Source of the DNA: Methanomicrobiales archaeon
Lineage (GTDB): Archaea; Halobacteriota; Methanomicrobia; Methanomicrobiales; Methanospirillaceae
Reading direction: 5' to 3'
DNA: 13,352 bases
NCBI GenBank assembly: GCA_037137755.1
Contig: JBAXJR010000055.1
Span: 1 to 13,352, forward strand
The notes under the pieces were generated by a model that had not been told where the DNA came from, made no database searches, and saw nothing but the letters and a program-made list of their open reading frames with translations. The number at the start of each line of letters is the position of its first letter. Position 1 is the first letter of the stretch. The position numbers were made by a program, and so were the translations under genes. This document shows positions 1-13,352 of the stretch, one piece after another.

Positions 1-56
1 GTCAATGATTTTAGCTGAACAGAATTACGACCTCTCGGACATTTGTCGTCATTTTG

Positions 57-101
57 AAAAAAAAAAAGAACACCATCAAAGGAAAGATTTCCCCTTTTTT
101 T
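57..101. terminator. Probable bidirectional intrinsic terminator region at the 3' end of the che operon
   Basis: A11 at 57-67 (T11 on the minus strand, ~70 nt past the cheD stop) and T7 at 95-101 on the plus strand flank a small GGAA-AGAT-TTCC hairpin. Archaeal termination uses oligo-T tracts. Confidence 0.6.
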
Positions 102-139
102 ATCCTATAAACCACGATTTGTTCGCTGCCCGCGAAAAC

Positions 140-628
140 CTATAACTCACTTAATGTCCCGTCACCTTTTTTAATCACCAGCTTGCCATTTTCCTTTGGA
201 TAATAGAAGATAGTGCGACCGACACATCCCCCTATATCTTCCCCTTTGATTGGAATATTTTTTTCCTTCAGGAGTTTCCTTATCACTTCAACATTCCGCT
301 CGCCAATATTCAAATTCCCTGAAAAGGTCTTGAACATGGCGGAACCACCGGCAATCTTTGCAATCAGGTTAGCGGGGGTGCTGCCATTATTTATTAATTC
401 CTTCATCAGCACGTCTATTGCAGTATCGGCATATTTTCCCGGCCGGTCTGTTTTTCCCTGTGATGATGGCAGCATGATATGGACAAGAGACCCTGTACCC
501 ATTTTCCTGTCGTGAATAACAAGCCCTACGCATGAACCAAGCCCGATCGATGCCATCGGCATAGAGCCTACCTGGTACTCACCGATGCCGATTATGACCG
601 TATCGTTTCCCGGGGGCATTAGACTCAT
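140..628 (-). CDS. cheD: Chemoreceptor glutamine deamidase CheD
   Basis: Motifs IGIGEY, GLGSCVG (catalytic Cys), VHIMLP (catalytic His), KYAD, AKIAGG, NIGERN and EDIGGxxGRTI. Lies directly downstream of cheC. Confidence 0.97.
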
Positions 629-638
629 AGTATTTCCT

Positions 639-1256
639 TTATGCGGGGGGGTTAAGAAGTTCCTCTAGCCTTCGGATAATATCCTCAAGCATAGGGTGGT
701 TCGGAAACAGGAAGATACTGCTCTGGATGTTATGGGCATCACTTACCAGTGCTGTTTTGAACAGTACAATCTCGTCAATATCTTCAGATTCCTGGGATGC
801 AATGATACTTTCTATTGCAGCATGCGGCATATCAATTACCAGTTGTGGCGGAGATGGCAGCATGATAATATTCAGAAGTTCCGCGGTGCCGTCCAGGAAT
901 GCAGAGACCATGATATTCCCTACCTCTAATAGGGCACTCTTATCCATCTCGTCAAGTTCACGGTCCATATCTGTTAATCCGAGCATTGCATTTGTAAGGC
1001 GGATTACAGAACTTTTCGGGATATATAACAGGAGATAGCCCCCGGGTCTTACCTCCCCGTTAACCTGGAACAAGACGAGTGCTGCTATCTCGTCTCCCAC
1101 ATATTTGTATATTTCAGAAATATCAATTACTTTGATTTCCGGCACACTCATCGAAATGTTCGCCGAAAGCATTGTGGAAAGGGTTGTTGCTGCGTGTGCT
1201 GCCCCGATATTCCCCAGTTCCTGAAGTGCATCTGTCTGTACATGCGTCAGTTTCAT
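639..1256 (-). CDS. cheC: CheY-P phosphatase CheC
   Basis: Two CheC active-site motifs (D/S-x3-E-x2-N): [10 protein letters not shown] and [12 protein letters not shown] is 1 nt after the cheA stop, with SD-like AAGGAG in the end of cheA. Confidence 0.95.
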
Positions 1257-1257
1257 C

Positions 1258-3270
1258 TCAGCTCTCCTTCACAATTGCGTTTACATCAAGCACGGGCACC
1301 ACTTCTCCGTCACCGGGAATTGTAATACCACTTATTCCACGACACCCACCGACCATCGAACTCAGCGGTTTAATAACAACCTCCTGCTGACCTTCAATCA
1401 TATCTACAGCAATTGCACGTTTTTTGTTCTGGTGCTGTAGTACGACGAGGATCTCAGTCTGGTCAGACTTCCCGAACATATCGTCGAGCCTGTCAAGGGG
1501 TAATACTTCGTCCCTCATCATGATTGCTTCCTGTGTACCGATGTGATGGATCTTGCTTACAGATAGTCCGGCAACCTCCACAACATTGTTCACCGGTATC
1601 GCACAGCGGCGACCATTGATCCGGACCATGATCACATTCACGATTGCCATCGTGGGGGGCAGGACCAGTTCAAACCGTGACCCTTTCCCGGGTGATGACT
1701 CAACCTTGATAGTCCCTTTCAGGTTATCTATGGCAGTCCTGACAACATCAAGACCAACGCCTCTGCCACTTACATCGGTAATCTTTTCAGCGGTTGAGAA
1801 ACCTGGCAGGAACAGGAGGTCATATACTGCTTCATCGGCCATTTCGGAGGCCTGTAATTCAGTAATTAATCCGCGTTCAATTGCCTTCCTGGCTACTTTT
1901 TCACGGTTAATCCCGGCCCCATCGTCTTCAATGACAATAACGACATTGTCCCGGTCACGGCTTGCGATCAGGTTCAACTTCCCTTTACCAGGCTTCCCCG
2001 CTTTTATCCGGACTTCCGGCTTTTCAATCCCGTGATCCACCCCATTCCGTATCAGGTGAAGTAACGGGTCGTTAAGCCCGTCCATAATGCTGCGGTCAAG
2101 TTCTGTATCGCCACCTTCGATGGTGAACTCAACCTCTTTTTCCTCCTTGTGTGCAAGGTCACGGACCGTACGCGGAAACCGGTTGAAAATATGTGACAGG
2201 GGGATCATCCTGATGTTCATCATCAGGTTCTGAAGATCAGAAACGGAACGGCCTACCATGTTGAGGGTCTCGTCCAGCTCTTTTATCTGGAATTTCCGGG
2301 CGATCTGTGCCAGTCGGCCCCTGTTAATTACGAGGTCTTCAATCAGGTTCATCATCTGGTCAAGGCGGGTAATATCTACCCGGATATTTTTGACTTCCCG
2401 GTTTTTATCCACCCGGTCTTCCTTAACAGGTTTTGGCACACCCGGTGCATGAATCATTCCGGCGGTCTGGGTTCCTGACCCGGGTCGCGGCTTGACCTCT
2501 CCTTCGGGACCTGCGGCACCCTTGCCAGCCGCCATTTCAATATCAGGTCCGAACAGGACTTCCCTGACATCAGAAACTGAGGCAGCGGTTTTCAAGGCAT
2601 CTATTCCGGCATCGCTTCGGATAACCAGCCTGATTGTACCATCAAATTCGCCATCTTCAATAATTTCCCGGTCAGGTATGCACTGGATAATCGTTCCGAA
2701 TTGATCGAGGTTCAGGAGGAGGAGCATCCCCCTCAGGTTCCTGTTATCGCAGTCATCCCGGAGCCGTATCAGCATCTGGTACTGCCCTTCCTTCTCCTCC
2801 AGAAGATCAGTATTTCCTGTTAGTTCAGGGGCGGGTCCGGAATTTCCTGACTGCCGGGAGTCTCCACTCGTGCCACCTGTTGTGTGCTGGTCTGATTCCC
2901 AGTCAAGAAGTGACTGCATACGCTCTTCGAGGTGATCTATTGTCCCCGGCCCCCCTGACTCAATATCATCAAGCATCAGTTCAATATCATCCGATGCTGC
3001 AAGGAGGAGATCAACGAGGTCCTGGTGGACTTCCCGCTGACCACTTCTGATGAGCTGGAACACATCCTCCATTGCGTGACAGACCCGCTCCATGTGCTGG
3101 AACCCCATGGTTGCTGACATGCCCTTCAGAGAATGGGCGGAACGGAAAATTTCGGAAATAGCTGCTTCATCGGGCCCATTCTCAAGTACAAGGAGGTTCT
3201 TTACAATAGTTTCGTGATTTTCTCTCGATTCTGCGATATAGAGTGCCCGGTAGGCATCCATTTCAGACAT
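1258..3270 (-). CDS. cheA: Chemotaxis histidine kinase CheA (P1-P2-P3-P4-P5)
   Basis: Hpt IFRSAHSLKG, a P2-like domain, dimerisation IRVDITRLDQMMNL, ATPase boxes HLIRNGVDHG, EDDGAG, LPGFST and SGRGVGLDVV, and a C-terminal CheW-like domain. Start placed at ATG 3270 (MSEM), 1 nt after the cheB TAA with GGTGG upstream, rather than GTG 3279. Confidence 0.97.
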   Translation of the reverse strand: MSEMDAYRALYIAESRENHETIVKNLLVLENGPDEAAISEIFRSAHSLKGMSATMGFQHMERVCHAMEDVFQLIRSGQREVHQDLVDLLLAASDDIELMLDDIESGGPGTIDHLEERMQSLLDWESDQHTTGGTSGDSRQSGNSGPAPELTGNTDLLEEKEGQYQMLIRLRDDCDNRNLRGMLLLLNLDQFGTIIQCIPDREIIEDGEFDGTIRLVIRSDAGIDALKTAASVSDVREVLFGPDIEMAAGKGAAGPEGEVKPRPGSGTQTAGMIHAPGVPKPVKEDRVDKNREVKNIRVDITRLDQMMNLIEDLVINRGRLAQIARKFQIKELDETLNMVGRSVSDLQNLMMNIRMIPLSHIFNRFPRTVRDLAHKEEKEVEFTIEGGDTELDRSIMDGLNDPLLHLIRNGVDHGIEKPEVRIKAGKPGKGKLNLIASRDRDNVVIVIEDDGAGINREKVARKAIERGLITELQASEMADEAVYDLLFLPGFSTAEKITDVSGRGVGLDVVRTAIDNLKGTIKVESSPGKGSRFELVLPPTMAIVNVIMVRINGRRCAIPVNNVVEVAGLSVSKIHHIGTQEAIMMRDEVLPLDRLDDMFGKSDQTEILVVLQHQNKKRAIAVDMIEGQQEVVIKPLSSMVGGCRGISGITIPGDGEVVPVLDVNAIVKES

Positions 3271-3271
3271 A

Positions 3272-4300
3272 TTAACCACCCATGGCTTTGACTACCCGTG
3301 TTATCTCACCGGCCATCGAACGGAGCGGCAGTACTGAGTCAACGCAATTGAGTTTGAGAGCTGACCGGGCCATTCCATACACAAGACAATCAGATTCGCG
3401 GACGACCATGGTAGTCCCACCATGCTGTTTTACTGCAAGGGTGCCATCTCCCCCATCGCTCCCCATTCCTGATAGAATCGTGGAAACGGTAAGGGGACCA
3501 AAGGCAGCAGCTGCCGAGGAAAAAGTCTTGTTGACGGCAGGTCGAACACTGTGTTCGGGTGGGGCCCGCGAATGGATTATCCGCCCACCTTTTAACCCAG
3601 ACTGGGTTATCATGCTGGAAATTACGGTATGGTACCCGGCCATTGATACATAAACATGGCCACTGGACAGAATATCGCCATTTTCGGTCTCTTTTACAGG
3701 CATTGGGGAGAGCCGGTTGAGCCGTGCAGCAAGCGCTGCAGTAAATCCACCTTCAGGCATGTGCTGTGTGATCATGATAGCCGCGGGTAAACTCGTCGGG
3801 AATGATGAAAGAAGGACATCCAGCATAGGCGGGCCTCCGGCCGAGGAGCCAATCAGCACGATTTTATCTGCAACTTCAGCAGAGGGACCGGACTTTCTTG
3901 TTACATATGCTATAGTGACCAGGTTTTTAACCTTGGTAACAAGTTCCTGTGATATCCCCCGTATGCGCGCAAGGTCCTTCGGTTTCAGCATAAAATCATC
4001 TGCACCGTAGGCCATTGCCTTTTTTGTCATCAGGGCCCCCTGGGAGGTGAGCGAGCTGAGCATCAGTGTTTTTGGCTGGTGCTCCATTGTTGCTTTACGT
4101 TTGAGCACTTCGATACCATCCATCTTCGGCATCTCGATATCCAGCGTTATGACATCTGGTTTTAGCTCATCTATCTTCAACAGCCCGTCTTCACCATTGG
4201 TGGCTACCCCGACAACCTCGATTTCCGGGTCTTTTCGAAGCATGTCAGTGATGATTGTACGCATAAAAAGCGAATCATCAATCACAAGAACACGGATCAT
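3272..4300 (-). CDS. cheB: Chemotaxis response regulator protein-glutamate methylesterase CheB (REC + methylesterase)
   Basis: REC domain (VIDDS, TLDIEMP, LKP) and methylesterase triad motifs GSSAGG, QHMP and GMGSDG. True start is ATG 4300 (MIRVLVIDD), 2 nt after the cheY stop. The ORF-track extension to 4429 overlaps cheY. Confidence 0.96.
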   Translation of the reverse strand: MIRVLVIDDSLFMRTIITDMLRKDPEIEVVGVATNGEDGLLKIDELKPDVITLDIEMPKMDGIEVLKRKATMEHQPKTLMLSSLTSQGALMTKKAMAYGADDFMLKPKDLARIRGISQELVTKVKNLVTIAYVTRKSGPSAEVADKIVLIGSSAGGPPMLDVLLSSFPTSLPAAIMITQHMPEGGFTAALAARLNRLSPMPVKETENGDILSSGHVYVSMAGYHTVISSMITQSGLKGGRIIHSRAPPEHSVRPAVNKTFSSAAAAFGPLTVSTILSGMGSDGGDGTLAVKQHGGTTMVVRESDCLVYGMARSALKLNCVDSVLPLRSMAGEITRVVKAMGG

Positions 4301-4302
4301 CG

Positions 4303-4665
4303 TCACGATCCAAGCACGTTTTTTATCTCTTCGAGCACTTTTGGTGCCTGGAATGGTTTTACAACGTACCCTCTCGCACCACTCTTTATCGCCAGCTTCA
4401 CCATCTGCTCCTGTCCGACAGCCGTGCACATGATTACCCGTGCATTCGGATCCAGGGCCTTTATTGCCTTTAGTGCTTCGATCCCGTTCATTTTAGGCAT
4501 AACTACGTCCATTGTTACGAGATCAGGTTTCAACTCCTTGTACTTCTCGATGGCTTCGTCCCCGTCACCGGCTTCACCAACGATAGCATGCCCACCGGAA
4601 AACAGGATGTTTTTGAGAAGTGTTCTCATAAAAAGTGTATCATCAACGATCAGAATTCTCCCCAT
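4303..4665 (-). CDS. cheY: Chemotaxis response regulator CheY
   Basis: Stand-alone 120-aa receiver domain with IVDD, phospho-acceptor Asp in VTMDVVMP, Thr in CTAVG and Lys in VVKPF. Sits between cheF and cheB. Confidence 0.96.
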   Translation of the reverse strand: MGRILIVDDTLFMRTLLKNILFSGGHAIVGEAGDGDEAIEKYKELKPDLVTMDVVMPKMNGIEALKAIKALDPNARVIMCTAVGQEQMVKLAIKSGARGYVVKPFQAPKVLEEIKNVLGS

Positions 4666-4692
4666 GTGTAATCACATCAGCTCTTTGTCCGG

Positions 4693-4718
4693 CACTTATA
4701 TGTACTTAATGCTGAATC
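4693..4718 (-). promoter_or_regulatory. Putative internal promoter (TATA-like) upstream of cheY
   Basis: The 67-bp cheF-cheY gap contains minus-strand ATTAAGTACATATAAG, whose ATATAA element ends ~30 nt before the cheY ATG. Confidence 0.35.
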
Positions 4719-4732
4719 TGCAATGCAACGGG

Positions 4733-5542
4733 TTAAGGAGTAGGGGGTTTAACGGCATCCGAGATGAACCGGACTCCCTTGGGGGTGAGCTGGACTTCTC
4801 TCCTGGTAAACATCACTTCAACAACACCCAGTTTTAACAATTTATCGAATATCTGGTCAAGTTCAGTATGGGGGATATTCAGCATATTCTCAATAGCATG
4901 AGAGTCCATTCCGCTGTAGACAAGCATCCCAACCTGCGCAGCAAGAGGGTCAAGCTCATCACCTTTCATGTCCATTTCCTTGGTCGCGTCTTTCAAAAAA
5001 TTAAGAAGTACCTGCAGCGTCGAGAGCGGGCAAAGGACAAAACTGGTTACTACTTCCCCGTTTTCAAGATGATCGATTTTTATGACATCCACCTGTTTCT
5101 TCTGGAGGTCACGCTGTGTCATTTCAATGCCGGCAACTTCGGCAATCGGGACACATACCTGTTTGTTCTGGCTCACAAACCAGATCCCGGTTTTCAGCAC
5201 AGCTACGGCACCCTTCTCCCATTGTGCATCAGTGACCATCACCCCCCCCCTGACAGCAGGAGACATGAAATATGCACTCAGGCGATAGGCACTGCATGAC
5301 ATGATGATCATGCGTTTTAAGACCTGTAACGCCTTCGGGACGGTGGCAATGCGATAAATCCTTTCCGGGGTACCTTTTACCATGATGAGAAGGACACTTT
5401 TCTTCTCTTCCAGGTTAATAATCGATTTAAATGGAATATCAGTGTTGACGGGCTCCCTGATGGAAAGCTGATCCTGGGTTACCTCTATCTTGGAGACAAC
5501 CCATTTCCCATCTTTTTCTATTTTTATCGGAATTTCAGCCAT
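4733..5542 (-). CDS. cheF: Archaeal chemotaxis adaptor CheF (DUF439 family), links CheY-P to the archaellum motor
   Basis: Two beta-rich PH-like segments, MSPAVRGGV and a C-terminal helical/winged-helix part ending RREVQLTPKG. Lies between the arl and che genes, next to cheY. Confidence 0.88.
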   Translation of the reverse strand: MAEIPIKIEKDGKWVVSKIEVTQDQLSIREPVNTDIPFKSIINLEEKKSVLLIMVKGTPERIYRIATVPKALQVLKRMIIMSCSAYRLSAYFMSPAVRGGVMVTDAQWEKGAVAVLKTGIWFVSQNKQVCVPIAEVAGIEMTQRDLQKKQVDVIKIDHLENGEVVTSFVLCPLSTLQVLLNFLKDATKEMDMKGDELDPLAAQVGMLVYSGMDSHAIENMLNIPHTELDQIFDKLLKLGVVEVMFTRREVQLTPKGVRFISDAVKPPTP

Positions 5543-5574
5543 ATCAACACTTGTTCCGGATACTCACACGCCAC

Positions 5575-6846
5575 TTATTTCTTTACTTTCGTCATACTTA
5601 ATATCCCTTCCAGTTCTTTCTCAAGATCTGCGGCCGGGACTTTCACATCTTTTAAGTCCCGCAGAAGGGGTGCATTCGTATCCTTTTTCACACCAGAGGC
5701 ATCAGATTTAAGAGAAGCCATCAGGTCATCATCCATACCCTTTCCTGATGAAAATGCCATCATCGAGTCCGACATATCCTTAGGCTTTTCCGGGGTATCC
5801 ATCTTACTGGACGGAGCAGAGGCAAACGGGGACCCCCCCATCGGTGAAGCAGACGATGACGCAGGTTTCGGGGCTGAAGCAGGGGGGCTTTTATCTGGTG
5901 GAGGTGAGGTCCTTGACTCCGTATTGTCAGGGTTATCAGGGTCGCCGAGTTCCTGGTCAAGATCAATACTGTTTACATCAAGGTCCTCGAGGCCGCCCAT
6001 ATCCATTTCACCGGATAACGGATCCTTCTCCCCTTCATCGCCAGGGTCCAGGTCTCCCATATTCGCCGCAAGTATTGATGCAACTTCATCATTATCAGAA
6101 TCGTCATCAATAGTAATCCCTTCGTCAGTATCAAGGGAGATATCCAGGTTGGATATATCATCACCAAAAGCCCCTGACATATCAGCACCAAGATCAAGGT
6201 CATTTAGTGAAGAAAGGTCACCCATATCATCATCAGGCCCCACGGAGTCGAGCAATTCTGTGTTCATCTGCTCTTTTACAAGGGTTGAGAAGGGATCACT
6301 CACACTCTGTTTTCCGGATGGGATAATTTCAGGGTTTGCTTCCTTAAGAGACCGAATATCAGGTGCCCTTCCCTGGACAGACTGGTCAAGCATCTGGTCC
6401 AGTTTATTTTTATCCCGCTGTTTAGCGGTTGCGGGCTTCCTTGCCTTTCCAATATCACCTGCGATGACAGTGAACGCCTGCCCCATAGACGAAAAAGCGT
6501 CCCGGATTGTTGAGAATCTCCCCTGCGTCTTTTTGCCCGGTTTTTTATCCGTTGCGGTTTTTGTCCCGGATCCCGGTTTTTTCCCGCTTTTTTCTTTTGC
6601 GGGTTTTGTAGTTACCGGGGGTTTTTGTTCTTTAACTGATTTTTTCTCACCTTTTTTAGATGAAAATGAGATTTTAGGTACTTTTAATTTAGGGATTTTG
6701 ATTGATCCATTGATCAAAAGGACCAGTACCGCCAGTGCTATGACTACCAGTACCAAAAAAATTGCAGGTAAATCAAAAAGGACCAGAACTAACCCGGCAA
6801 TAAGTATGACGGTGAATAATAAAATCCGACGGACTGAATCCTTCAT
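5575..6846 (-). CDS. Uncharacterised membrane-anchored protein (2 N-terminal TM, Lys-rich linker, Asp-rich repeats, Pro/Ser linker, helical C-terminus)
   Basis: 423-aa ORF, co-oriented, starting 3 nt after the arlJ stop with SD-like GGGGGT. Hydrophobic segments at aa ~8-24 and ~28-45. Confidence 0.85.
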   Translation of the reverse strand: MKDSVRRILLFTVILIAGLVLVLFDLPAIFLVLVVIALAVLVLLINGSIKIPKLKVPKISFSSKKGEKKSVKEQKPPVTTKPAKEKSGKKPGSGTKTATDKKPGKKTQGRFSTIRDAFSSMGQAFTVIAGDIGKARKPATAKQRDKNKLDQMLDQSVQGRAPDIRSLKEANPEIIPSGKQSVSDPFSTLVKEQMNTELLDSVGPDDDMGDLSSLNDLDLGADMSGAFGDDISNLDISLDTDEGITIDDDSDNDEVASILAANMGDLDPGDEGEKDPLSGEMDMGGLEDLDVNSIDLDQELGDPDNPDNTESRTSPPPDKSPPASAPKPASSSASPMGGSPFASAPSSKMDTPEKPKDMSDSMMAFSSGKGMDDDLMASLKSDASGVKKDTNAPLLRDLKDVKVPAADLEKELEGILSMTKVKK

Positions 6847-6849
6847 GTA

Positions 6850-8472
6850 CTATACCCCCTGGAAGACAGGGATATTAAAGAACATCGCAACAATATACGG
6901 CGCCACAATATATACAATTCCCGTCATTATCGTTAAAATGCTTGCGAAGAAATAAAAGATATACCGCCCGCCACCCATCACAATTTTTCCGGCAAAAATA
7001 TTTGCAACGGTAATAATCGTGAGCATGATCATGATATAGAGGGTCATTTCTGCTTCAGGAAACGAAACAAACATATTGATACCGCTGACCATTGACCCCC
7101 CGACGCTCTGGGCTGCCTGGGTACCTTCACCCATGGCATTGAGGTTATTCATTACACCTGCAATTGCCTTGGACATCGTCAGCAGAATATGGAATAGGAA
7201 CAGGAAAATTGCGACCATCATGGTATGCATGGGGATAATGAGTACGACAAAACCCATGGAAACTGAGTTTCTCTTTTCCCGGAGGAGGACCTGTTCAAGC
7301 ATTGAAGAACCCGCAATCTCCCCAATCGTGTCCGGGGACCCTCCAAGCTCACACGAGTCCCTGAAAATATTAAGATACTTATAGATCAGGTTACTCCCGC
7401 TCTCCCCGATAAATTTCTCCCAGCTGGCATTCTCGTCAAGGCCAAGGTTTAGTTTGGAATATACGCCATTGATCAATGGTTCAAGCACGACAAGGGATTT
7501 CCGGTCAATTTCAGCCAGTGCATGGCCCATTGTTGTCCCTTTTCCACCCATTACGGCACCAATACTTCGTATGAAGGAAGTAAAATCAGCGTCCCGCTGG
7601 ATGATATTACTGTCGTCGAGGTACCCGATGATACCCAGGGGCAGGAGCATCAGCCCTATTAACAGCATAACAAGGCCATATACGTCCTTGATAAGCCCGA
7701 ATGCACTGATAGCGAAAAAAATTACCGTGACAATGACGACAATAGGAATAATTCTCCGTTCAAGCCGCCTGATAATCATCTGCTCTTTTGAACCGGTCGG
7801 AAGGTCATGGATCTTCTCATCTGACGGGACTGAAGTGTACATCGTCACGATGCCGAACAACGACGTTGTTATTACGATCATGTACGACAGCATCAGGGTA
7901 GACTGGACATTTTCAGGTGTGAAAAGAGCAACTGACACCATGATGATAATCCCGACAAGGGCACCTGAGAACAACATTGCAATGTACGCATCCCCCCATT
8001 TTTTGAGCATTTCGAGCCCCTGCTCGTAGTTATTCCGGTAGACACTCCTGACGGTTGCAAGCTCGCGGTTGAGAAAGTCCTCATCCGGTACACCGGATTC
8101 TATGGAGTTTGAATAGCGGTTCAGCATACTCGCCAGCAGTTTGTTTTTTGTCCGTTCTGCAACCGCGGTAAGGGCTTCAACGTAGCTGTAATTCCAGCGC
8201 TTTACAAAAAATTCAACTTTTGCAATATATTTAGCAGTCGCGTACTCTTTTCTGAGTGCGGTATAGGCAAAAATCTCTGGCCTGGTAGCGCGTGCCGTTG
8301 TAATCGAGCACATGTAGGTGGCCATGAACAGCATATCAGCTGCCATCCGCTTTGCTTCAAGGAGTGAGTCAAGTTTCTCCCTGATGCCCTTAATCATGCC
8401 CTTGAAGGGTATCTCGCGGCCTTCTTTAACCGGAAGCTCTGCAGGCCCGGCGGGCAGGCTTTTAACATCCAT
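6850..8472 (-). CDS. arlJ: Archaellum membrane platform protein ArlJ (FlaJ)
   Basis: 540 aa with two large soluble T2SS-F-like domains and multiple TM segments. Motifs WNYSYVEAL, SIESG and ELGGSP. Directly follows arlI. Confidence 0.95.
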   Translation of the reverse strand: MDVKSLPAGPAELPVKEGREIPFKGMIKGIREKLDSLLEAKRMAADMLFMATYMCSITTARATRPEIFAYTALRKEYATAKYIAKVEFFVKRWNYSYVEALTAVAERTKNKLLASMLNRYSNSIESGVPDEDFLNRELATVRSVYRNNYEQGLEMLKKWGDAYIAMLFSGALVGIIIMVSVALFTPENVQSTLMLSYMIVITTSLFGIVTMYTSVPSDEKIHDLPTGSKEQMIIRRLERRIIPIVVIVTVIFFAISAFGLIKDVYGLVMLLIGLMLLPLGIIGYLDDSNIIQRDADFTSFIRSIGAVMGGKGTTMGHALAEIDRKSLVVLEPLINGVYSKLNLGLDENASWEKFIGESGSNLIYKYLNIFRDSCELGGSPDTIGEIAGSSMLEQVLLREKRNSVSMGFVVLIIPMHTMMVAIFLFLFHILLTMSKAIAGVMNNLNAMGEGTQAAQSVGGSMVSGINMFVSFPEAEMTLYIMIMLTIITVANIFAGKIVMGGGRYIFYFFASILTIMTGIVYIVAPYIVAMFFNIPVFQGV

Positions 8473-8489
8473 GATTCGCGGTAAACCCT

Positions 8490-10370
8490 TTAATCTGGGA
8501 TATCAATAGTAAGGAGCCCCTGCTTCTTGATTTTGGTCATCATGTGGTACAGGTCATAGAAACCGGTATACCCGGCCTTATGTAATCGTTCAAGAATACG
8601 TGCCCTTTTTTCCACTTCCAGATACATACCGGCCTTTTTGTGATCAGGAATACCGAGCATGGTAGCAATCCTGTTTTCAAGGAGGAAACTGCTCCCCCTT
8701 CCATGGAAATCGTGGGCGTCAGTAATGGGGTTCCAGCTGAACATCTCGACAAAAGAGAACCCACCGGTTTCCGGGTTAAAACCCACCAGTTCATTTATTG
8801 AGAGGATCCTGCGGACCATGCTGCCATCCGGACGACGAACGGAACTCTGGATAACAACAAGGTTCAGGTTATCGACATAGGTCTTAGGGATAAGGATCGG
8901 ATCACCACAAAGACGCTGGATGAGTTTTTCAACGGAAGCCGCGTGGAATGTGGAAAGCACAGGGTGGCCGGTCTGCATCGCACCGAATGCGACAGCACCT
9001 TCAACACCACGGATCTCACCAACAAGGATCTGGTTCGGACGCTGACGGAGTGCGGCCCTTAACAGGTCAAACATCGTGACGTCTCCCCCTTCCCCTTCAC
9101 CCTTTCCTTTACCTTTTGATACTTCACGTGTCCAGTTCAGGTGAGGGATCTGGAGTTCGGGCGTATCCTCGATCGTGACAATCTTGTTCTCCGGTGGAAT
9201 GAAGGTAGTCATCGCATTGAGCGAGGTCGTCTTTCCACTTGCCGTTTCACCGCTCATGAAGAGAGACATACCATTCTCGATACAGATCCAGAGATACGCA
9301 GCACACATATAATCGCACGTCTTGAATTCAATCAGTTTCAGGATGCTGATCGGATCGTCCATCGCTTTACGGATCGTGAAGTTCGAGCCTTTCCGGCTGA
9401 TATCCGTGCTGTAGACAATGTTAATACGGGAACCGTCAGGCAGTGTCGCATCAACGATCGGGTTCCGGTAGGTGATAGGCCGTCTCGTCCGTTCTGCAAG
9501 CTTTATCACGTAGTTATCCAGCTCTTTTTCCTTATCCCAGCCAACCACTGATTTGAGACCTTTGAATATCTTGTGTTCAACAAATATCGGGCCGATACCG
9601 TCACAGGTGATATCTTCGATATACTTGTCACTGAGGAATGGCTTTAAAAGGCCGATATCAACTTTATCACGGACCATCATGTATTCGAGGGCTGAATACT
9701 CCTGGGGAGTCATAATAACCCTGCCGTCAGGGGTCCTTGCAACGTGTGCGAAGGCCTGTGCCCTCCCCGAACTGTCCTTCTTTGTAATGTCCTTATTGAG
9801 GAAGCCCTTCATTTTGCCCATGAATCCTGGATTTTCCGATTCTTTACTGGCCATAACCGGAATATTTTCCCCGGGCATTTTTATCTGGACGACCTGTTTG
9901 AGGAGATTTCGTAATACCGTGCTCCGTGCCTCATCGGTAACCGGGTCCTCTTCCAGTGCATCAAGGAGATCGATCAGTTTGTATTCAACTGCTGGAACAA
10001 GGTCTTTGACACTGTGCAGGAATGAGGGCTCGATCGGGATGTAATAGTTCCTGACATCATTGGGATCAAAAAAAATGTGGACAAAGGTATCGGCATCAGC
10101 AGGGTAGATGAGGTTAGGTTCCGTCATCGACTTTAGATCACGCTTTAATTCGGAGAAAAAAAGGGGAATACCATATTCATCAACCGGGAATATATGCAGG
10201 TATTCAAGGAGATGCGGGCTGTGCTGGACGTACTCTTTTGCATTCGTCGGTAACATCCGATAAAGGGCACAGGACTCGATATTATTCGCGCAATCGTTAT
10301 CTTCTGTGTTTACCGCACGTTTAAAGGGCAGGGAGAGACTTGTTGCGACTGAAATTTCTCCTTGACTCAT
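8490..10370 (-). CDS. arlI: Archaellum motor/assembly ATPase ArlI (FlaI), T2SS/T4P ATPase family
   Basis: Walker A GETASGKTT, Asp box TIEDTPEL, Walker B ILVGEIRG, His box QTGHPVLSTFHA and DATLPDGSRIN. Starts 1 nt after the arlH stop. Confidence 0.97.
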   Translation of the reverse strand: MSQGEISVATSLSLPFKRAVNTEDNDCANNIESCALYRMLPTNAKEYVQHSPHLLEYLHIFPVDEYGIPLFFSELKRDLKSMTEPNLIYPADADTFVHIFFDPNDVRNYYIPIEPSFLHSVKDLVPAVEYKLIDLLDALEEDPVTDEARSTVLRNLLKQVVQIKMPGENIPVMASKESENPGFMGKMKGFLNKDITKKDSSGRAQAFAHVARTPDGRVIMTPQEYSALEYMMVRDKVDIGLLKPFLSDKYIEDITCDGIGPIFVEHKIFKGLKSVVGWDKEKELDNYVIKLAERTRRPITYRNPIVDATLPDGSRINIVYSTDISRKGSNFTIRKAMDDPISILKLIEFKTCDYMCAAYLWICIENGMSLFMSGETASGKTTSLNAMTTFIPPENKIVTIEDTPELQIPHLNWTREVSKGKGKGEGEGGDVTMFDLLRAALRQRPNQILVGEIRGVEGAVAFGAMQTGHPVLSTFHAASVEKLIQRLCGDPILIPKTYVDNLNLVVIQSSVRRPDGSMVRRILSINELVGFNPETGGFSFVEMFSWNPITDAHDFHGRGSSFLLENRIATMLGIPDHKKAGMYLEVEKRARILERLHKAGYTGFYDLYHMMTKIKKQGLLTIDIPD

Positions 10371-10371
10371 A

Positions 10372-11109
10372 TCAGACCTTAGCCATCGAAATCGGGATTA
10401 TTTTCATGCCATAACCGGGATGAACTTCGAAACTGACCAGGTTGCCGGTCGTTTTCCGTGCCCCACGGACTTTCACTACTTCCATGACCATGACGTATTT
10501 ATCACCAATCAGGGATTTTTTCATGGAGAGATGTGCATCGCAGATGGAACGGATACGGATCAGGGTATCCTCCTGGAATGCATAGGTATGAAGAGTGATG
10601 AGAATTGTCTTTCCATGGTCAACAAGATTTTTACAGTTCGTCAAGAACGTGAGAACCGTTTCCTGGGTCGTATACTCGGTAAACATGGTAAGTGAATCAA
10701 TAATTATGACCTGGGCCTTACTGGTCCGGATATGGTCAATGATGTGTTCAAGGATCCCGTCCATTTCAGCTTTGGACCATTTGAACCCGACCATGTGCAG
10801 CGGGAAGAGCTTAACATAACCCCAGGCGAAATAGTCTGATACATCAAGGCTCATTGACTCCATCTGGGAGAGGAAACTTTTTGCAGTCATTTCGGTTGAG
10901 TACAGGTCAACACAGAGGCCCTGTTTCATTGCACCCCATATGATCTGCTCTGTCAGGACACTTTTACCGGTATCATTCTCACCTTCAATAAGCGTAAGAG
11001 AACCCAATGGAAGGCCATCAGCTATTTTTTTATCTATTTCATTACTTCCGGTTGAGAGGATCTTCCGATCTTCTCCACCGAGCATACCTGCGATGCCTTC
11101 AAATCCCAT
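10372..11109 (-). CDS. arlH: Archaellum KaiC/RecA-like ATP-binding protein ArlH (FlaH)
   Basis: STGSNEIDKKIADGLP, Walker A GENDTGKS, Walker B IIIDSLT and C-terminal FEVHPGYGMKIIPIS. Start placed at ATG 11109 (SD-like GTGGTGG upstream). GTG 11121 or ATG 11085 are alternatives. Confidence 0.95.
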   Translation of the reverse strand: MGFEGIAGMLGGEDRKILSTGSNEIDKKIADGLPLGSLTLIEGENDTGKSVLTEQIIWGAMKQGLCVDLYSTEMTAKSFLSQMESMSLDVSDYFAWGYVKLFPLHMVGFKWSKAEMDGILEHIIDHIRTSKAQVIIIDSLTMFTEYTTQETVLTFLTNCKNLVDHGKTILITLHTYAFQEDTLIRIRSICDAHLSMKKSLIGDKYVMVMEVVKVRGARKTTGNLVSFEVHPGYGMKIIPISMAKV

Positions 11110-11120
11110 TTGCCACCACA

Positions 11121-11170
11121 CTTATATTTTTCGTAATTGTATAATCGATTCAGCACTATTTAATTCTCTG
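11121..11170 (-). promoter_or_regulatory. Putative promoter region for the arlH-I-J block
   Basis: Minus-strand GAGAATTAAATAG (purine-rich BRE-like + TATA-like, ~11156-11168) and CGAAAAATATAAG (11121-11133) lie in the long arlF-arlH gap. Confidence 0.4.
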
Positions 11171-11366
11171 CCTTGTACAAATACATACCCGGATTTCAGA
11201 TAGGGTGGTGCATTCGCAATATTTCCGGATCACACCCTATGCTCAGCAGAACTGGCCCGTGGATAAATTGTTAGAAATTCATAGAGTCTTTGCAACATCT
11301 ATTGCCACGGTGTATCCGGACCGGGATAAAAAGGGCGATATTTTACATCTACGCATATAATTTTCC

Positions 11367-11834
11367 CTATGGGCCAGTAACCTTCGTGATAGCCGATACG
11401 CCATTTCCGGTTGTCACCTGTACTGTTACCGGGTAGTCAGAGCTATCATATATCACTGACATATTCAGTGTCTCGGTTGGGCGCCACTGTTTACTATCAG
11501 GAGAAATAATCCAGGTGTTTGCTACTGATCCCTTAGGAATCAGGACTGGAACTTTATTCTGCACTTTGAGAAAAACATTAAGAGTGGAAATATCGATCGG
11601 TTCACTTCCCGAATTTCTCATATCCAGGTGGATTACATTGGGTGTGCTGTTTTCCACGGAATTGGAATCAATCGCAATTGCAGTCCCAAGCATTTTCATG
11701 TGAACTGCCGTCATGTCAGCCTGTGCATTCATCGCAATTTGGGTCGTGGTTAGGACACCCCCGACGAGGACATAGGCGGTAACTATCAGGAGGATAATTC
11801 CTATAGCTGATCCGATGATCGATGCAAATGCCAT
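11367..11834 (-). CDS. arlF: Archaellum stator/S-layer anchor protein ArlF (FlaF)
   Basis: N-terminal TM (MAFASIIGSAIGIILLIVTAYVL), NSGSEPI, WRPTETL and VTTGNGVS, typical of the archaellin-like ArlF fold. ATG 11834 has a strong SD AAGGAGGA at 11846-11853. Confidence 0.85.
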   Translation of the reverse strand: MAFASIIGSAIGIILLIVTAYVLVGGVLTTTQIAMNAQADMTAVHMKMLGTAIAIDSNSVENSTPNVIHLDMRNSGSEPIDISTLNVFLKVQNKVPVLIPKGSVANTWIISPDSKQWRPTETLNMSVIYDSSDYPVTVQVTTGNGVSAITKVTGP

Positions 11835-11845
11835 CCGGTAATCAG

Positions 11846-11853
11846 TCCTCCTT
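11846..11853 (-). promoter_or_regulatory. Shine-Dalgarno site of arlF
   Basis: AAGGAGGA 11 nt upstream of ATG 11834. Confidence 0.75.
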
Positions 11854-11856
11854 AAT

Positions 11857-12321
11857 TCAATCAGTAACAAATTCTACTGATCTTTTTACTCCATTCGGTA
11901 AAACAATGGCAAAATATGCCATTCCACCGCCTGCCGGTATTTTGCTGCTCGAAAGGGGGGTCACATCAAGCGTCTCCCCGGGGTCCCACCATTGACCAAT
12001 CGCTGTCTTATTATAGTGACCCTGCAAGGAAGACCGATCAAAATCACCGACCCCACCGATGAAAACATCAGAATTATCCAGGTCATTTACCGATATCCGT
12101 GAGCTCCCGATGTTTTTCAGCCATATCTCAGCAGCAGGGGTTTTGGCAAAATAATTGACTATCTTAATATCGGTCCGTATCTGATCGTCTGTGGAATGTG
12201 CTACGGAACCAAAGGTCTCGGTCGTCCGCGAGATGATGGGAAAAACAGCATTAATCAGGACACCTGCGGCCACCACGGCAGCGATCAAAAAGAGGGCGGT
12301 GACGATTGTCTCACTCGACAT
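11857..12321 (-). CDS. arlG: Archaellum stator protein ArlG (FlaG)
   Basis: MSSETIVTALFLIAAVVAAG N-terminal TM, IRTDIKI, WLKNIGS, DVFIG, WDPGETL and LPNGV, all characteristic of ArlG. Confidence 0.9.
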   Translation of the reverse strand: MSSETIVTALFLIAAVVAAGVLINAVFPIISRTTETFGSVAHSTDDQIRTDIKIVNYFAKTPAAEIWLKNIGSSRISVNDLDNSDVFIGGVGDFDRSSLQGHYNKTAIGQWWDPGETLDVTPLSSSKIPAGGGMAYFAIVLPNGVKRSVEFVTD

Positions 12322-12324
12322 TCA

Positions 12325-13248
12325 TCAGATCCTGTCTTTGGAGCGAATGAAATCCGCATCCTGCTGTTCTTCCCGCGAATGGTCTTCCCGGGTAACTCCC
12401 TGGACCTTCACAGGACTACCCCGTTTTTCCATCAGGACCTCTATCATATCACGGTCCAGCGTAGCATCTGAGGGATTCAGGATATGGTTCAGCTCGTATA
12501 ACTCTGAAACGAATTCATCGGCGCTGATTTCGTGCATTTCACCGAGTGTTGTCGGCATCAGGCGGGTAATATCCCTGACGAGTTTTGCAGATTCATCTGT
12601 TATATAGCCCATCGCACGGTAGGATTCGAGCATCAGGTCAACACGGTCGTGCCCGTATTTCTTAACCGTTTTACTCGTCCATTCAAAGAGCCTGAACACT
12701 TTTTGCAGGCGGACTTTTCCCGCTGATTCGGACTCTTTATTGGAGGGCATTGCGGGACCAGGAACTCCTGCAAACTGTGCCCTGATAGCTGCCAGCATCA
12801 TCTCATCAGGATTACCGGAACCAAGAGGGATCCTTGTAATAGTCCCCGAATCCTGGTGGGGTAGAGTTATAGCGGGTGATCCGGACCCCTGCACACCTGT
12901 CACTTCCTGGCTCTCATGATGAACCTGGGCATCCAGATGGGCCTGTGCCTCGTCTCGGATCTCCTGCGAGGCTTTCAAGGCTCCGGCCGCCGACTCCACC
13001 GCCCCTGCGGCTCCCTTCAGAGCGTTGGTGAACTGGCCCGGGTCCTGGCCCCCGGATGCACCCCCCTGCATCCCTGCATTGAACGGGTTCTCCATATCGT
13101 TCATGCGTTCACGGATATCAATTAAAAGGCGCTTGATGGAGGTCTTTAAGAGTTCAACCTCGTCCTGTAATTTCAGCAGTTTCACTTCAGGGTCATCGGC
13201 AGATGCCGTCGAAATGATGTGGTCAACCTGTGCCTGATTTACTGCCAT
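12325..13248 (-). CDS. ArlC/D/E-like archaellum switch-complex protein (N-terminal coiled coil ending NPF, C-terminal ArlD/E-like domain)
   Basis: Coiled coil at aa 21-56 ending ENPF (ArlC-like). The aa ~180-258 segment LFEW...KYG...MLESYRAMGYITDE resembles the ArlD/E W..G..Y...G[WY]I pattern. First gene of the arl block. Confidence 0.65.
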   Translation of the reverse strand: MAVNQAQVDHIISTASADDPEVKLLKLQDEVELLKTSIKRLLIDIRERMNDMENPFNAGMQGGASGGQDPGQFTNALKGAAGAVESAAGALKASQEIRDEAQAHLDAQVHHESQEVTGVQGSGSPAITLPHQDSGTITRIPLGSGNPDEMMLAAIRAQFAGVPGPAMPSNKESESAGKVRLQKVFRLFEWTSKTVKKYGHDRVDLMLESYRAMGYITDESAKLVRDITRLMPTTLGEMHEISADEFVSELYELNHILNPSDATLDRDMIEVLMEKRGSPVKVQGVTREDHSREEQQDADFIRSKDRI

Positions 13249-13276
13249 ATCAATTAATAGTTTTCACTTCTCTTCG

Positions 13277-13290
13277 TTATTATACTTTTG
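13277..13290 (-). promoter_or_regulatory. BRE + TATA promoter of the arl operon
   Basis: Minus-strand CAAAAG-TATAATAA (TATA at 13277-13284) ends 28 nt upstream of ATG 13248, implying a very short leader. Confidence 0.6.
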
Positions 13291-13352
13291 CCATATGGAT
13301 GACAATGATGAATGACAATACGGAAAAACGGTCTGAAAATCGATTGACTAAG

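Follow-up and report, generated by a model that had tools for sequence, protein, structure and literature searches.

The window analyzed here is a stretch of 13,352 nucleotides (nt) from a Methanomicrobiales archaeon (assembly GCA_037137755.1, contig JBAXJR010000055.1, positions 1 to 13,352), and the minus-strand gene that occupies 5575..6846 within it, hereafter gene X, encodes a membrane-tethered acidic protein of 423 amino acids (aa) that is very probably a dedicated accessory protein of the archaellum. Judged by sequence comparison, X is a member of a real and conserved family, whose gene follows arlJ, the gene of the membrane platform of the motor, and accompanies the archaellum across several orders. 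Its mode of action can be proposed with less assurance. A role as a membrane leash that tethers a part of the motor, analogous to ArlX or to tethers of the GspL/PilN type, is the mechanism that we tentatively favor, at a little less than an even chance.

The case for an archaellum-specific role is carried first by co-occurrence. In a phylum sample of 401 genomes, an ArlJ orthologue was present in 142, with a cut-off of E<=1e-72 chosen after the bimodal distribution of E-values in these genomes had been seen. Matches that passed it lay in arl clusters wherever they were inspected, and those at 1e-31 to 1e-38 would be pilus-type paralogues, because five of five such genomes tested had no close ArlH (best E 7e-21, at most 31% identity, one genome without any match). 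A profile of the C-terminal module of X built from sequences of its own order only (A3) matched 101 of the 401 genomes, including families outside the order. A second profile of the same module, built from 30 sequences and including out-of-order ones (A4), found the module in 116 of the 142 genomes with an ArlJ orthologue and in 0 of the 259 without. By this profile, the own order of X carries the module in 60/60 genomes with ArlJ and in 0/8 without. Among families outside it, every genome with an ArlJ orthologue has the module in f8, which is of the Archaeoglobi/Archaeoglobaceae type (30/30), in f14 (13/13) and in f12 (5/5), against 8/17 in f7, 0/15 in f15 and 0/2 in f29. Searched as a whole protein, X was matched in 36 of 41 relatives, representing all six families of the order, and ten in-order genomes without X are also without a true ArlJ. 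X is thus an extra gene always present in archaellated Methanomicrobiales, and present as well in the sampled archaellated genomes of Archaeoglobaceae, Methanocella type and Methanoliparum type. In one genome (G398), a second, decayed copy accompanies an intact arl cluster (contig C1, ~1943514-1946104, minus strand), with five TGA and one TAA codons in its arlJ-like stretch and one TGA in the adjoining X-module stretch.

Gene position carries the second part of the case. In the window, the arlJ stop codon (6850-6852) and the start of X at 6846 are separated by a 3-nt gap, and a further 32 nt without any T-run lead from the stop of X to the start of cheF, in agreement with the earlier note, which had placed the gene 3 nt after arlJ and just before cheF. 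The reading frame, taken from the open reading frame (ORF) list and its translation, comprises 423 codons from an ATG start, with its stop codon at 5575-5577, and runs on the minus strand, a point that the earlier note had left unstated. A GGGGG run within the end of arlJ (6855..6859, minus strand), 8-12 nt upstream of the X start codon, is Shine-Dalgarno-like and would act as its ribosome-binding site. Across the order, a module-bearing ORF follows arlJ in 20 of 20 distant loci and cheF comes next in 19 of them, so that the arlJ-X-cheF order is kept throughout Methanomicrobiales. Outside the order, an X ORF stands right after arlJ in 14 of the 15 loci fetched, and the module lies downstream of arlJ, on the same strand and within 1.3 kb, in 55 of 56 genomes, whose coordinates were compared by eye. 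The sole out-of-order exception is an Archaeoglobi-type locus (L059, genome G267), in which the X-type gene (~8604-9260, plus strand) is found between arlH (7894-8592) and arlI (9430-11145), with arlJ at 11205-12749. In G170, of the same genus (locus L065), X follows arlJ, and this difference in placement hints that X may be linked to the arlH-I-J core rather than to arlJ alone.

Two in-order loci depart from an intact gene. At locus L020 (genome G027), only a 121-aa ORF with the C-terminal module is found (8275-8640, plus strand), 2.8 kb after arlJ (3866-5443), and G325, of the same genus, has a 483-aa open frame for X; either something was inserted in G027 or the gene is broken. At locus L022 of G017, a complete genome of the same family as the window, X (7951-9260, minus strand) is split by a single frameshift. 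One frame encodes its N-terminal 160-odd residues, from the transmembrane (TM) hairpin through KIDKLLD, and another encodes the remainder, from DPFLSLS on; this split could be a sequencing error or real decay.

The gene following arlJ in five loci fetched from families f15 and f29 (L086-L088, L093 and L095, from 17 ArlJ-bearing genomes of those families) encodes a short, very acidic soluble protein of 114-174 aa with 29-40% Asp/Glu and a conserved EEWWLQKG motif. Its end resembles the X module by eye (DDLIYxLK ... EELGDVSxEELL). These proteins were rejected as members of the family, as they gave no match to A4 by hmmsearch and an hhalign probability of 6%.

The architecture of X agrees in most respects with what the earlier note had described. 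Its hydropathy profile shows a single continuous hydrophobic block at about aa 3-54, which AlphaFold2 (AF2) divides into helices 3-23 and 28-46 at a predicted local distance difference test (pLDDT) value of about 82. The two N-terminal TM helices that had been proposed are therefore seen as a TM hairpin (aa 3-46; 6709..6840, minus strand, like all parts of X) with a D-L-P turn. It is followed by a Lys-rich disordered juxtamembrane stretch (aa 47-112; 6511..6708; pLDDT 46-62), and a script count of aa 50-110 reproduced the 20 Lys reported there, along with 1 Arg and 4 Asp/Glu. A helix pair comes next (aa 113-157; 6376..6510; pLDDT 66-82), made of an amphipathic helix (113-135) and a second helix (139-157). 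The first of these bears out the possible amphipathic helix noted at aa ~110-133: its hydrophobic moment of 0.45, against a shuffle mean of 0.19, is equaled by 0.6% of 2000 shuffles, and it is thus amphipathic beyond chance. The acidic region (aa 158-310; 5917..6375), delimited by composition, AF2 and alignment A1, is mostly disordered, with only short predicted helices at 187-191, 197-200 and 253-261. The count of 37 Asp/Glu and a single Lys in aa 201-310 was likewise reproduced, with no Arg. The wording "acidic-repeat" is loose, since Tandem Repeats Finder, run on the window region, reported no tandem repeat in the acidic part; its sole row is an 11-nt unit in 2.2 copies at 6571-6594, in the Lys-rich part, and the acidic region has recurring D-L-D-like motifs instead of true repeats. 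The Pro/Ser linker is also real, 31 of the 50 residues of aa 311-360 (5767..5916; pLDDT below 50) being Pro, Ser or Ala, and it leads to the conserved C-terminal helical module (aa 361-423; 5578..5766), which was delimited by conservation, AF2 and profile searches and has the pattern FxxGxG-DDDLMASLKSD ... LLRDLKD-VKVPA-ADLEKELEGIL.

The compact helical end described by the earlier note was recovered in two AF2 models. In that of the whole protein (52-sequence alignment; mean pLDDT 58.8, predicted template modeling score 0.23), the C-terminal helices span 372-384, 392-399 and 405-418; in that of the last 63 residues folded alone (28 sequences; mean pLDDT 71.8), a long helix, a turn and a final helix with pLDDT above 83 are predicted. 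Membrane-protein segments flanked by positive charges tend to keep those flanks in the cytoplasm, according to the positive-inside rule. Under this rule, K2, R6 and R7 before the first TM helix and the Lys-rich sequence after the second would place both ends of X in the cytoplasm, and the tail is thus predicted, from the rule together with the AF2 helices, to be wholly cytoplasmic. Relatives from outside the order have a single TM helix with a very short N-terminus and Lys or Arg right after the helix. Because basic residues are retained after the last TM helix, it would be the cytoplasmic tail that is preserved as the TM helices change in number between two and one.

The family to which X belongs is broad. 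A word-indexed search (E<=1e-3) returned 49 close homologues, down to 29% identity; the few that are named come from Methanoregulaceae or Methanolinea as "hypothetical protein", and none carries a precomputed Pfam domain. Searching 1.84 billion cluster representatives (50% identity) with phmmer gave 143 matches, mostly full length at 350-450 aa and 61 of them at E<=1e-10. Matches to the C-terminal profile came from Methanocella spp. (P0220, 331 aa; P0235, 237 aa), Candidatus Methanoliparum thermophilum, Methanococcoides orientis and Methanolinea mesophila, all of them "hypothetical protein". The defining features of the family, one or two N-terminal TM helices and a C-terminal module of the form DDL..SL(K) ... 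LLRDLK ... (D/E)LExEL, were found in alignments A1, A2 and A4, and protein length ranges from about 200 to 460 aa across orders, with a roughly three-fold variation in tail length; Archaeoglobi-type members have tails of only ~110 residues between TM helix and module.

The C-terminus is also the best conserved region. In the 52-sequence alignment, the mean top-residue fraction is 0.59 over the C-terminal 58 residues, against 0.26 in the basic stretch, 0.34 in the acidic part and 0.26 in the linker; in the sampled relatives the basic stretch nonetheless keeps its net positive charge, and the acidic part and linker likewise keep theirs. R396, in the module, is invariant in 52/52 aligned sequences and G18 of the TM hairpin is nearly so. 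Helix 139-157 carries a conserved K-(I/L)-D-x-M-L-D-x-S-V motif, in which D150 is invariant in alignment A1, and a related motif, KEIDxxLEEVV, occurs at the helix pair of Archaeoglobi-type relatives. Short motifs punctuate the acidic region (DPFSxLV at 184-190, LLD at 197-199, DDEVASIL at 252-259 and IDLD at 294-297), and F186, D235, D247, V255, I258 and L259 are invariant in A1. Weak secondary matches of the C-terminal hidden Markov model to the juxtamembrane helix region give a hint of internal duplication, for which no claim is made.

Family searches agree with the earlier note that X matches none of the core Arl or Che families. Neither X nor eight out-of-order relatives had a Pfam match, and the only NCBIfam match of X, MXAN_5187_fam, was rejected as compositional at 20 bits against a cut-off of 200. 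Weak matches to LapA_dom in 10 of 52 members (best E 5.6e-4) were read as a generic likeness of TM hairpins. Profile-profile comparison by hhalign of X (A2 and A3) with twelve neighboring families from the same loci gave probabilities of at most 2.3%. Against the 29-sequence ArlCDE alignment in particular, the values were 0.5% for A2 and 0.3% for A3. The 25 families listed, of the 45 matched by the 52 members at E<=1, include neither a FlaD/E family (which we take to be Pfam PF04659) nor a FlaC family, a test that is weak taken alone, since the ArlCDE protein of the window also has no Pfam match at E<=0.01. In the Protein Data Bank, the best sequence match to A3 was a type VI secretion system protein over 25 residues at E 0.8, dismissed as chance, and a Foldseek search with the C-terminal model gave 0 matches. 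For aa 355-423, the ESM Atlas returned a best feature score of 0.77, below the level that shuffled proteins reach, and structure TM-scores below 0.5.

How such a protein would serve the motor can be sketched from its layout and its neighbors. The tight gene coupling and the constant place in the cluster suggest that the anchor of X would sit next to the platform formed by ArlJ. The basic and amphipathic stretch of the protein would then lie at or close to the membrane, with the flexible acidic tail serving as a leash, and the conserved C-terminal hairpin would dock onto ArlH, ArlI, ArlCDE or a cytoplasmic domain of ArlJ. GspL and PilN-PilM offer an analogy, being small membrane-anchored proteins encoded beside platform and ATPase genes and connecting parts in the cytoplasm with the membrane platform, to which ArlJ is homologous. 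Their cytoplasmic or periplasmic domains are folded, whereas X would combine a disordered acidic leash with a helical tip of 60 residues, and no homology of X to GspL or PilN-PilM was detected.

A closer analogue may be ArlX of Crenarchaeota (PF24151), which like X has an N-terminal anchor and a cytoplasmic helical part, is encoded in the arl cluster and is specific to the archaellum. According to the sections consulted of a 2021 review (Jarrell et al., PMC10117864), ArlX belongs to the monotopic membrane proteins and binds ArlH and ArlI through its soluble portion, ArlCDE are believed to take its place in Euryarchaeota, and reviews leave open how the soluble ArlCDE, ArlH and ArlI parts stay at the membrane. 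The two proteins differ in that ArlX is a coiled-coil former of rings and stands in place of ArlCDE, whereas X is mostly disordered and acidic and occurs alongside ArlCDE. PF24151 gave no match to X, a whole-genome search reached only E 0.34 on another contig, and Pfam scans found none; as a control, the family scored above its cut-off in one genome, and S. acidocaldarius was among the seven genomes with any match. By analogy, X most likely works like ArlX without any sequence relation to it, and would do for this euryarchaeal motor type what ArlX does in Crenarchaeota. A functional stand-in for ArlX had been named as one possibility by the earlier note, and of its suggestions this is the one preferred here, although these lineages keep ArlCDE as well. 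A more exacting version, in which X is the missing membrane link and a non-homologous counterpart of ArlX, its tip clamping ArlH, ArlI, ArlCDE or the structure beneath them and its leash holding them to ArlJ, thereby helping to form the static frame that the motor turns against, is rather unlikely. A complex prediction of ArlCDE (A8) with ArlH (A7) and the C-terminal module of X (A6) scored 0.00 and counts neither way.

Were the tether role true, X would be an eighth conserved arl accessory gene in Methanomicrobiales, Archaeoglobi, Methanocellales, Methanoliparia and part of Methanosarcinaceae, added to the euryarchaeal accessory set of ArlC/D/E, F, G, H, I and J given in reviews (PMC10117864). 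With its membrane anchor and docking-type tip, it would provide a concrete and testable candidate for a missing link, and the family would bring together genes now spread over at least three archaeal clusters of orthologous genes (arCOGs) whose labels conflict. Its importance is limited in that it would be an accessory part of one motor lineage and not a universal component.

Several observations weigh against a tethering role of this kind. The lineages with X keep ArlCDE, the euryarchaeal replacement of ArlX according to reviews (PMC10117864, in the sections consulted), and a second scaffold is not obviously needed because ArlCDE are kept. The docking partner is a proposal. Tail length varies about three-fold, therefore no fixed reach would be required, and X is frameshifted in the complete genome G017. 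The module went undetected in 26 of the 142 genomes with ArlJ (9/17 in f7, 15/15 in f15 and 2/2 in f29), the phylum sample of 401 genomes is apparently without haloarchaea, and A4 was partly counted on its own source genomes, which makes that count partly circular. In the table rows of Makarova et al. (2016) consulted, other genes stand after flaJ in model organisms: a convergent UbiA gene in M. maripaludis S2, CheF in H. volcanii (and in H. mediterranei, with coordinates overlapping FlaJ), an FlhG/MinD-type ATPase in Halobacterium NRC-1 and a DUF11 protein with a signal peptide in T. kodakarensis. The usual model organisms thus appear to be without X at this locus, and archaella would therefore be able to work without X, at least there.

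Some of these points suit the main rival of the tether better, namely that X is an assembly or regulatory factor whose tip binds ArlI, ArlH or ArlJ transiently as a brake, clutch or chaperone, with the tail as an ionic sensor or modification substrate. It draws on the same genomic evidence, and the absence of X from 26 of 142 archaellated genomes and from the model organisms befits a modulator more than a core part; the G267 gene lying between arlH and arlI and the linker being rich in Ser, Thr and Pro also favor it. X shows, however, no sign of a regulatory domain or of a modification site, and the presence in 60/60 archaellated members of the order together with the conserved anchor looks like a fixed machine part. 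We consider a regulatory or assembly role unlikely, if the least so of the rivals.

A second rival was the other inference of the earlier note, that X is a motor-chemosensory scaffold or a part of the polar landmark or cap like FimV/HubP, recruiting arrays or CheF. FimV and HubP are anchored in the membrane, with a long acidic region in the cytoplasm and, at the C-terminus, a short conserved element, and on the other side of the membrane they carry a periplasmic LysM-type peptidoglycan-binding domain. The anchor, acidic region and conserved end of X recall that layout, yet the likeness goes no further: only the D-L-P turn of ~3 residues is predicted outside, so that X has no periplasmic peptidoglycan-binding domain, Pfam and NCBIfam searches detected no LysM, TPR or FimV-type motif, and X is tied strictly to the operon of one machine and not to the pole. 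The arlJ-X-cheF order in 19 of the 20 distant loci of Methanomicrobiales does favor a chemosensory link, and the make-up of the polar cap is indeed described as unresolved in the 2021 review (Jarrell et al., PMC10117864, in the sections consulted). Outside the order, by contrast, X keeps its place in the arl cluster, and 10 of 15 loci have no cheF; in four of the other five, cheF is found 4-5 kb downstream from X, and in one it is 2-8 kb off on the other strand. A search with PF04283 in ten X-bearing genomes found CheF in five and not in the other five, and CheW (PF01584) was not found in three of these five CheF-less genomes: G048 (100% complete, one contig), G267 (99%, one contig) and G046 (86%). 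Because G048 and G267 carry X with no CheF or CheW match, the link of X is with the archaellum and not with chemotaxis. On this genomic evidence X does not depend on the chemotaxis system, and the adjacency to cheF in Methanomicrobiales reflects the arl-che supercluster of that order.

A role as a general pole organizer fares no better, with X in 0 of the 259 ArlJ-less genomes. The same review places the described caps in T. kodakarensis and Halobacterium, where other genes follow flaJ in the 2016 table, and gives the distance to the cap as 35-44 nm (PMC10117864), which by a rough estimate of chain length the ~110-residue tails of the Archaeoglobi type could hardly span. A scaffold or landmark role is accordingly quite improbable. 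Of the overall interpretation in the earlier note, what held is a conserved family with a conserved C-terminus, conserved synteny and a tail predicted to be cytoplasmic, and none of the outcomes that it had named as telling against it was seen; what was not supported is the chemosensory scaffold and the polar landmark.

About equally improbable is that X is an electrostatic or entropic spacer that keeps motors, nucleoid or ribosomes apart, its ends only self-associating. Disorder and a strongly acidic character are predicted for over half of the protein, and the low conservation of the acidic part and linker with their charge kept is what such a spacer would display. Conservation peaks, however, in a specific helical module that contains an invariant Arg, and this points to a defined partner; Archaeoglobi-type members also have short tails.

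The last rival, that X is a diverged protein of the ArlD/E family or a pilin-like or secreted protein, rests on the labels given to arCOG09476, arCOG06517 and arCOG07632 in the rows consulted of Supplementary Table S4 of Makarova et al. (2016) and is highly improbable, given the hhalign and Pfam results above, the blank FLAFIND entries in the arCOG09476 rows and the form of the protein itself, which on inspection has R-R before the hydrophobic stretch, no Gly/Ala cleavage motif at the junction, two TM helices and a 370-residue charged tail after the Lys-rich stretch.

These labels nevertheless show where the family has been catalogued. In that table, nine rows from Methanocella (two), Methanoculleus (two), Methanoplanus, Methanoregula (two), Methanosphaerula and Methanospirillum carry arCOG09476, labeled "FlaD/E family"; the gene is placed after FlaJ and before CheF in Methanomicrobiales, and one or two TM helices are entered in seven of the nine rows and left blank in two, with FLAFIND blank in all. 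The Methanocella proteins matched by our profile are those of the same organisms and lengths as the arCOG09476 rows (331 aa and 237 aa), and on this evidence gene X is of the same family as arCOG09476. The "FlaD/E family" label is not reproducible by the comparisons made here. According to the same table (Makarova et al., 2016), the gene after FlaJ has no arCOG in A. fulgidus, is arCOG07632 ("uncharacterized secreted protein") in A. profundus and, in the two clusters of M. acetivorans, is arCOG06517 ("predicted pilin family protein") and arCOG05240. Relatives in Archaeoglobus and Methanosarcina thus fall in other arCOGs or in none, and the wider family defined by the module is absent from the table rows consulted. 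No mention of the arCOG09476 family was found in the 12 of 15 places given by a term search of the main text of Makarova et al. (2016), and their Supplementary Table S1 was covered by term searches only. Nor did the searched literature, in which subscription journals were not covered, contain a paper describing the X protein. The family has thus been entered piecemeal in the catalogues, with labels that disagree, and is not characterized, and the present grouping corrects the database entries, in which a single family is named "FlaD/E family", "predicted pilin", "secreted protein" and "hypothetical".

The rest of the window is one long minus-strand cluster of arl genes followed by che genes. 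In the direction of transcription it opens with arlCDE (12325-13248), arlF and arlG, followed by arlH (10372-11121), identified by its match to the KaiC-type ATPase family in Pfam and NCBIfam, arlI (8490-10370; T2SSE match) and arlJ (6850..8472; NF004703, E 2.2e-209; PF00482), the last directly upstream of X. Directly downstream of X come cheF (4733..5542; PF04283, E 1.2e-13) and then cheY, cheB, cheA, cheC and cheD (140-628), all on the minus strand. Twenty-seven homologues from other arl clusters align well with the window's ArlCDE-type protein, the alignment having a conserved N-terminal coiled-coil-like part and a C-terminal domain, and the Pfam FlaC and FlaD/E models seem to miss the ArlCDE of this lineage. 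As listed, the cheB ORF (3272-4429) has a GTG start and overlaps cheY by 127 nt; its true start is probably near 4300, because homologues align from about the internal MIRVLVIDDS.

Parts of the window were represented in two metatranscriptome runs, from two samples of one study. Contigs in these RNA libraries are identical to 5872-6143 and 6027-6328 of X, a weak sign that X is transcribed, as DNA carry-over may explain them. The best-covered part of the window in both libraries is arlCDE (12286-13095), with contigs of 783-802 nt at depths of 16-25, figures that cannot rank expression; these contigs come from a related strain, because they differ from the window at 14-15 positions. Finally, the source genome bin contains a second arlH-arlI-arlJ stretch (contig C78, 127-4386, plus strand), on a 4.4-kb contig that ends right after arlJ, with an arlJ 91% identical to that of the window, and this stretch may be a co-binned strain variant or a second cluster.

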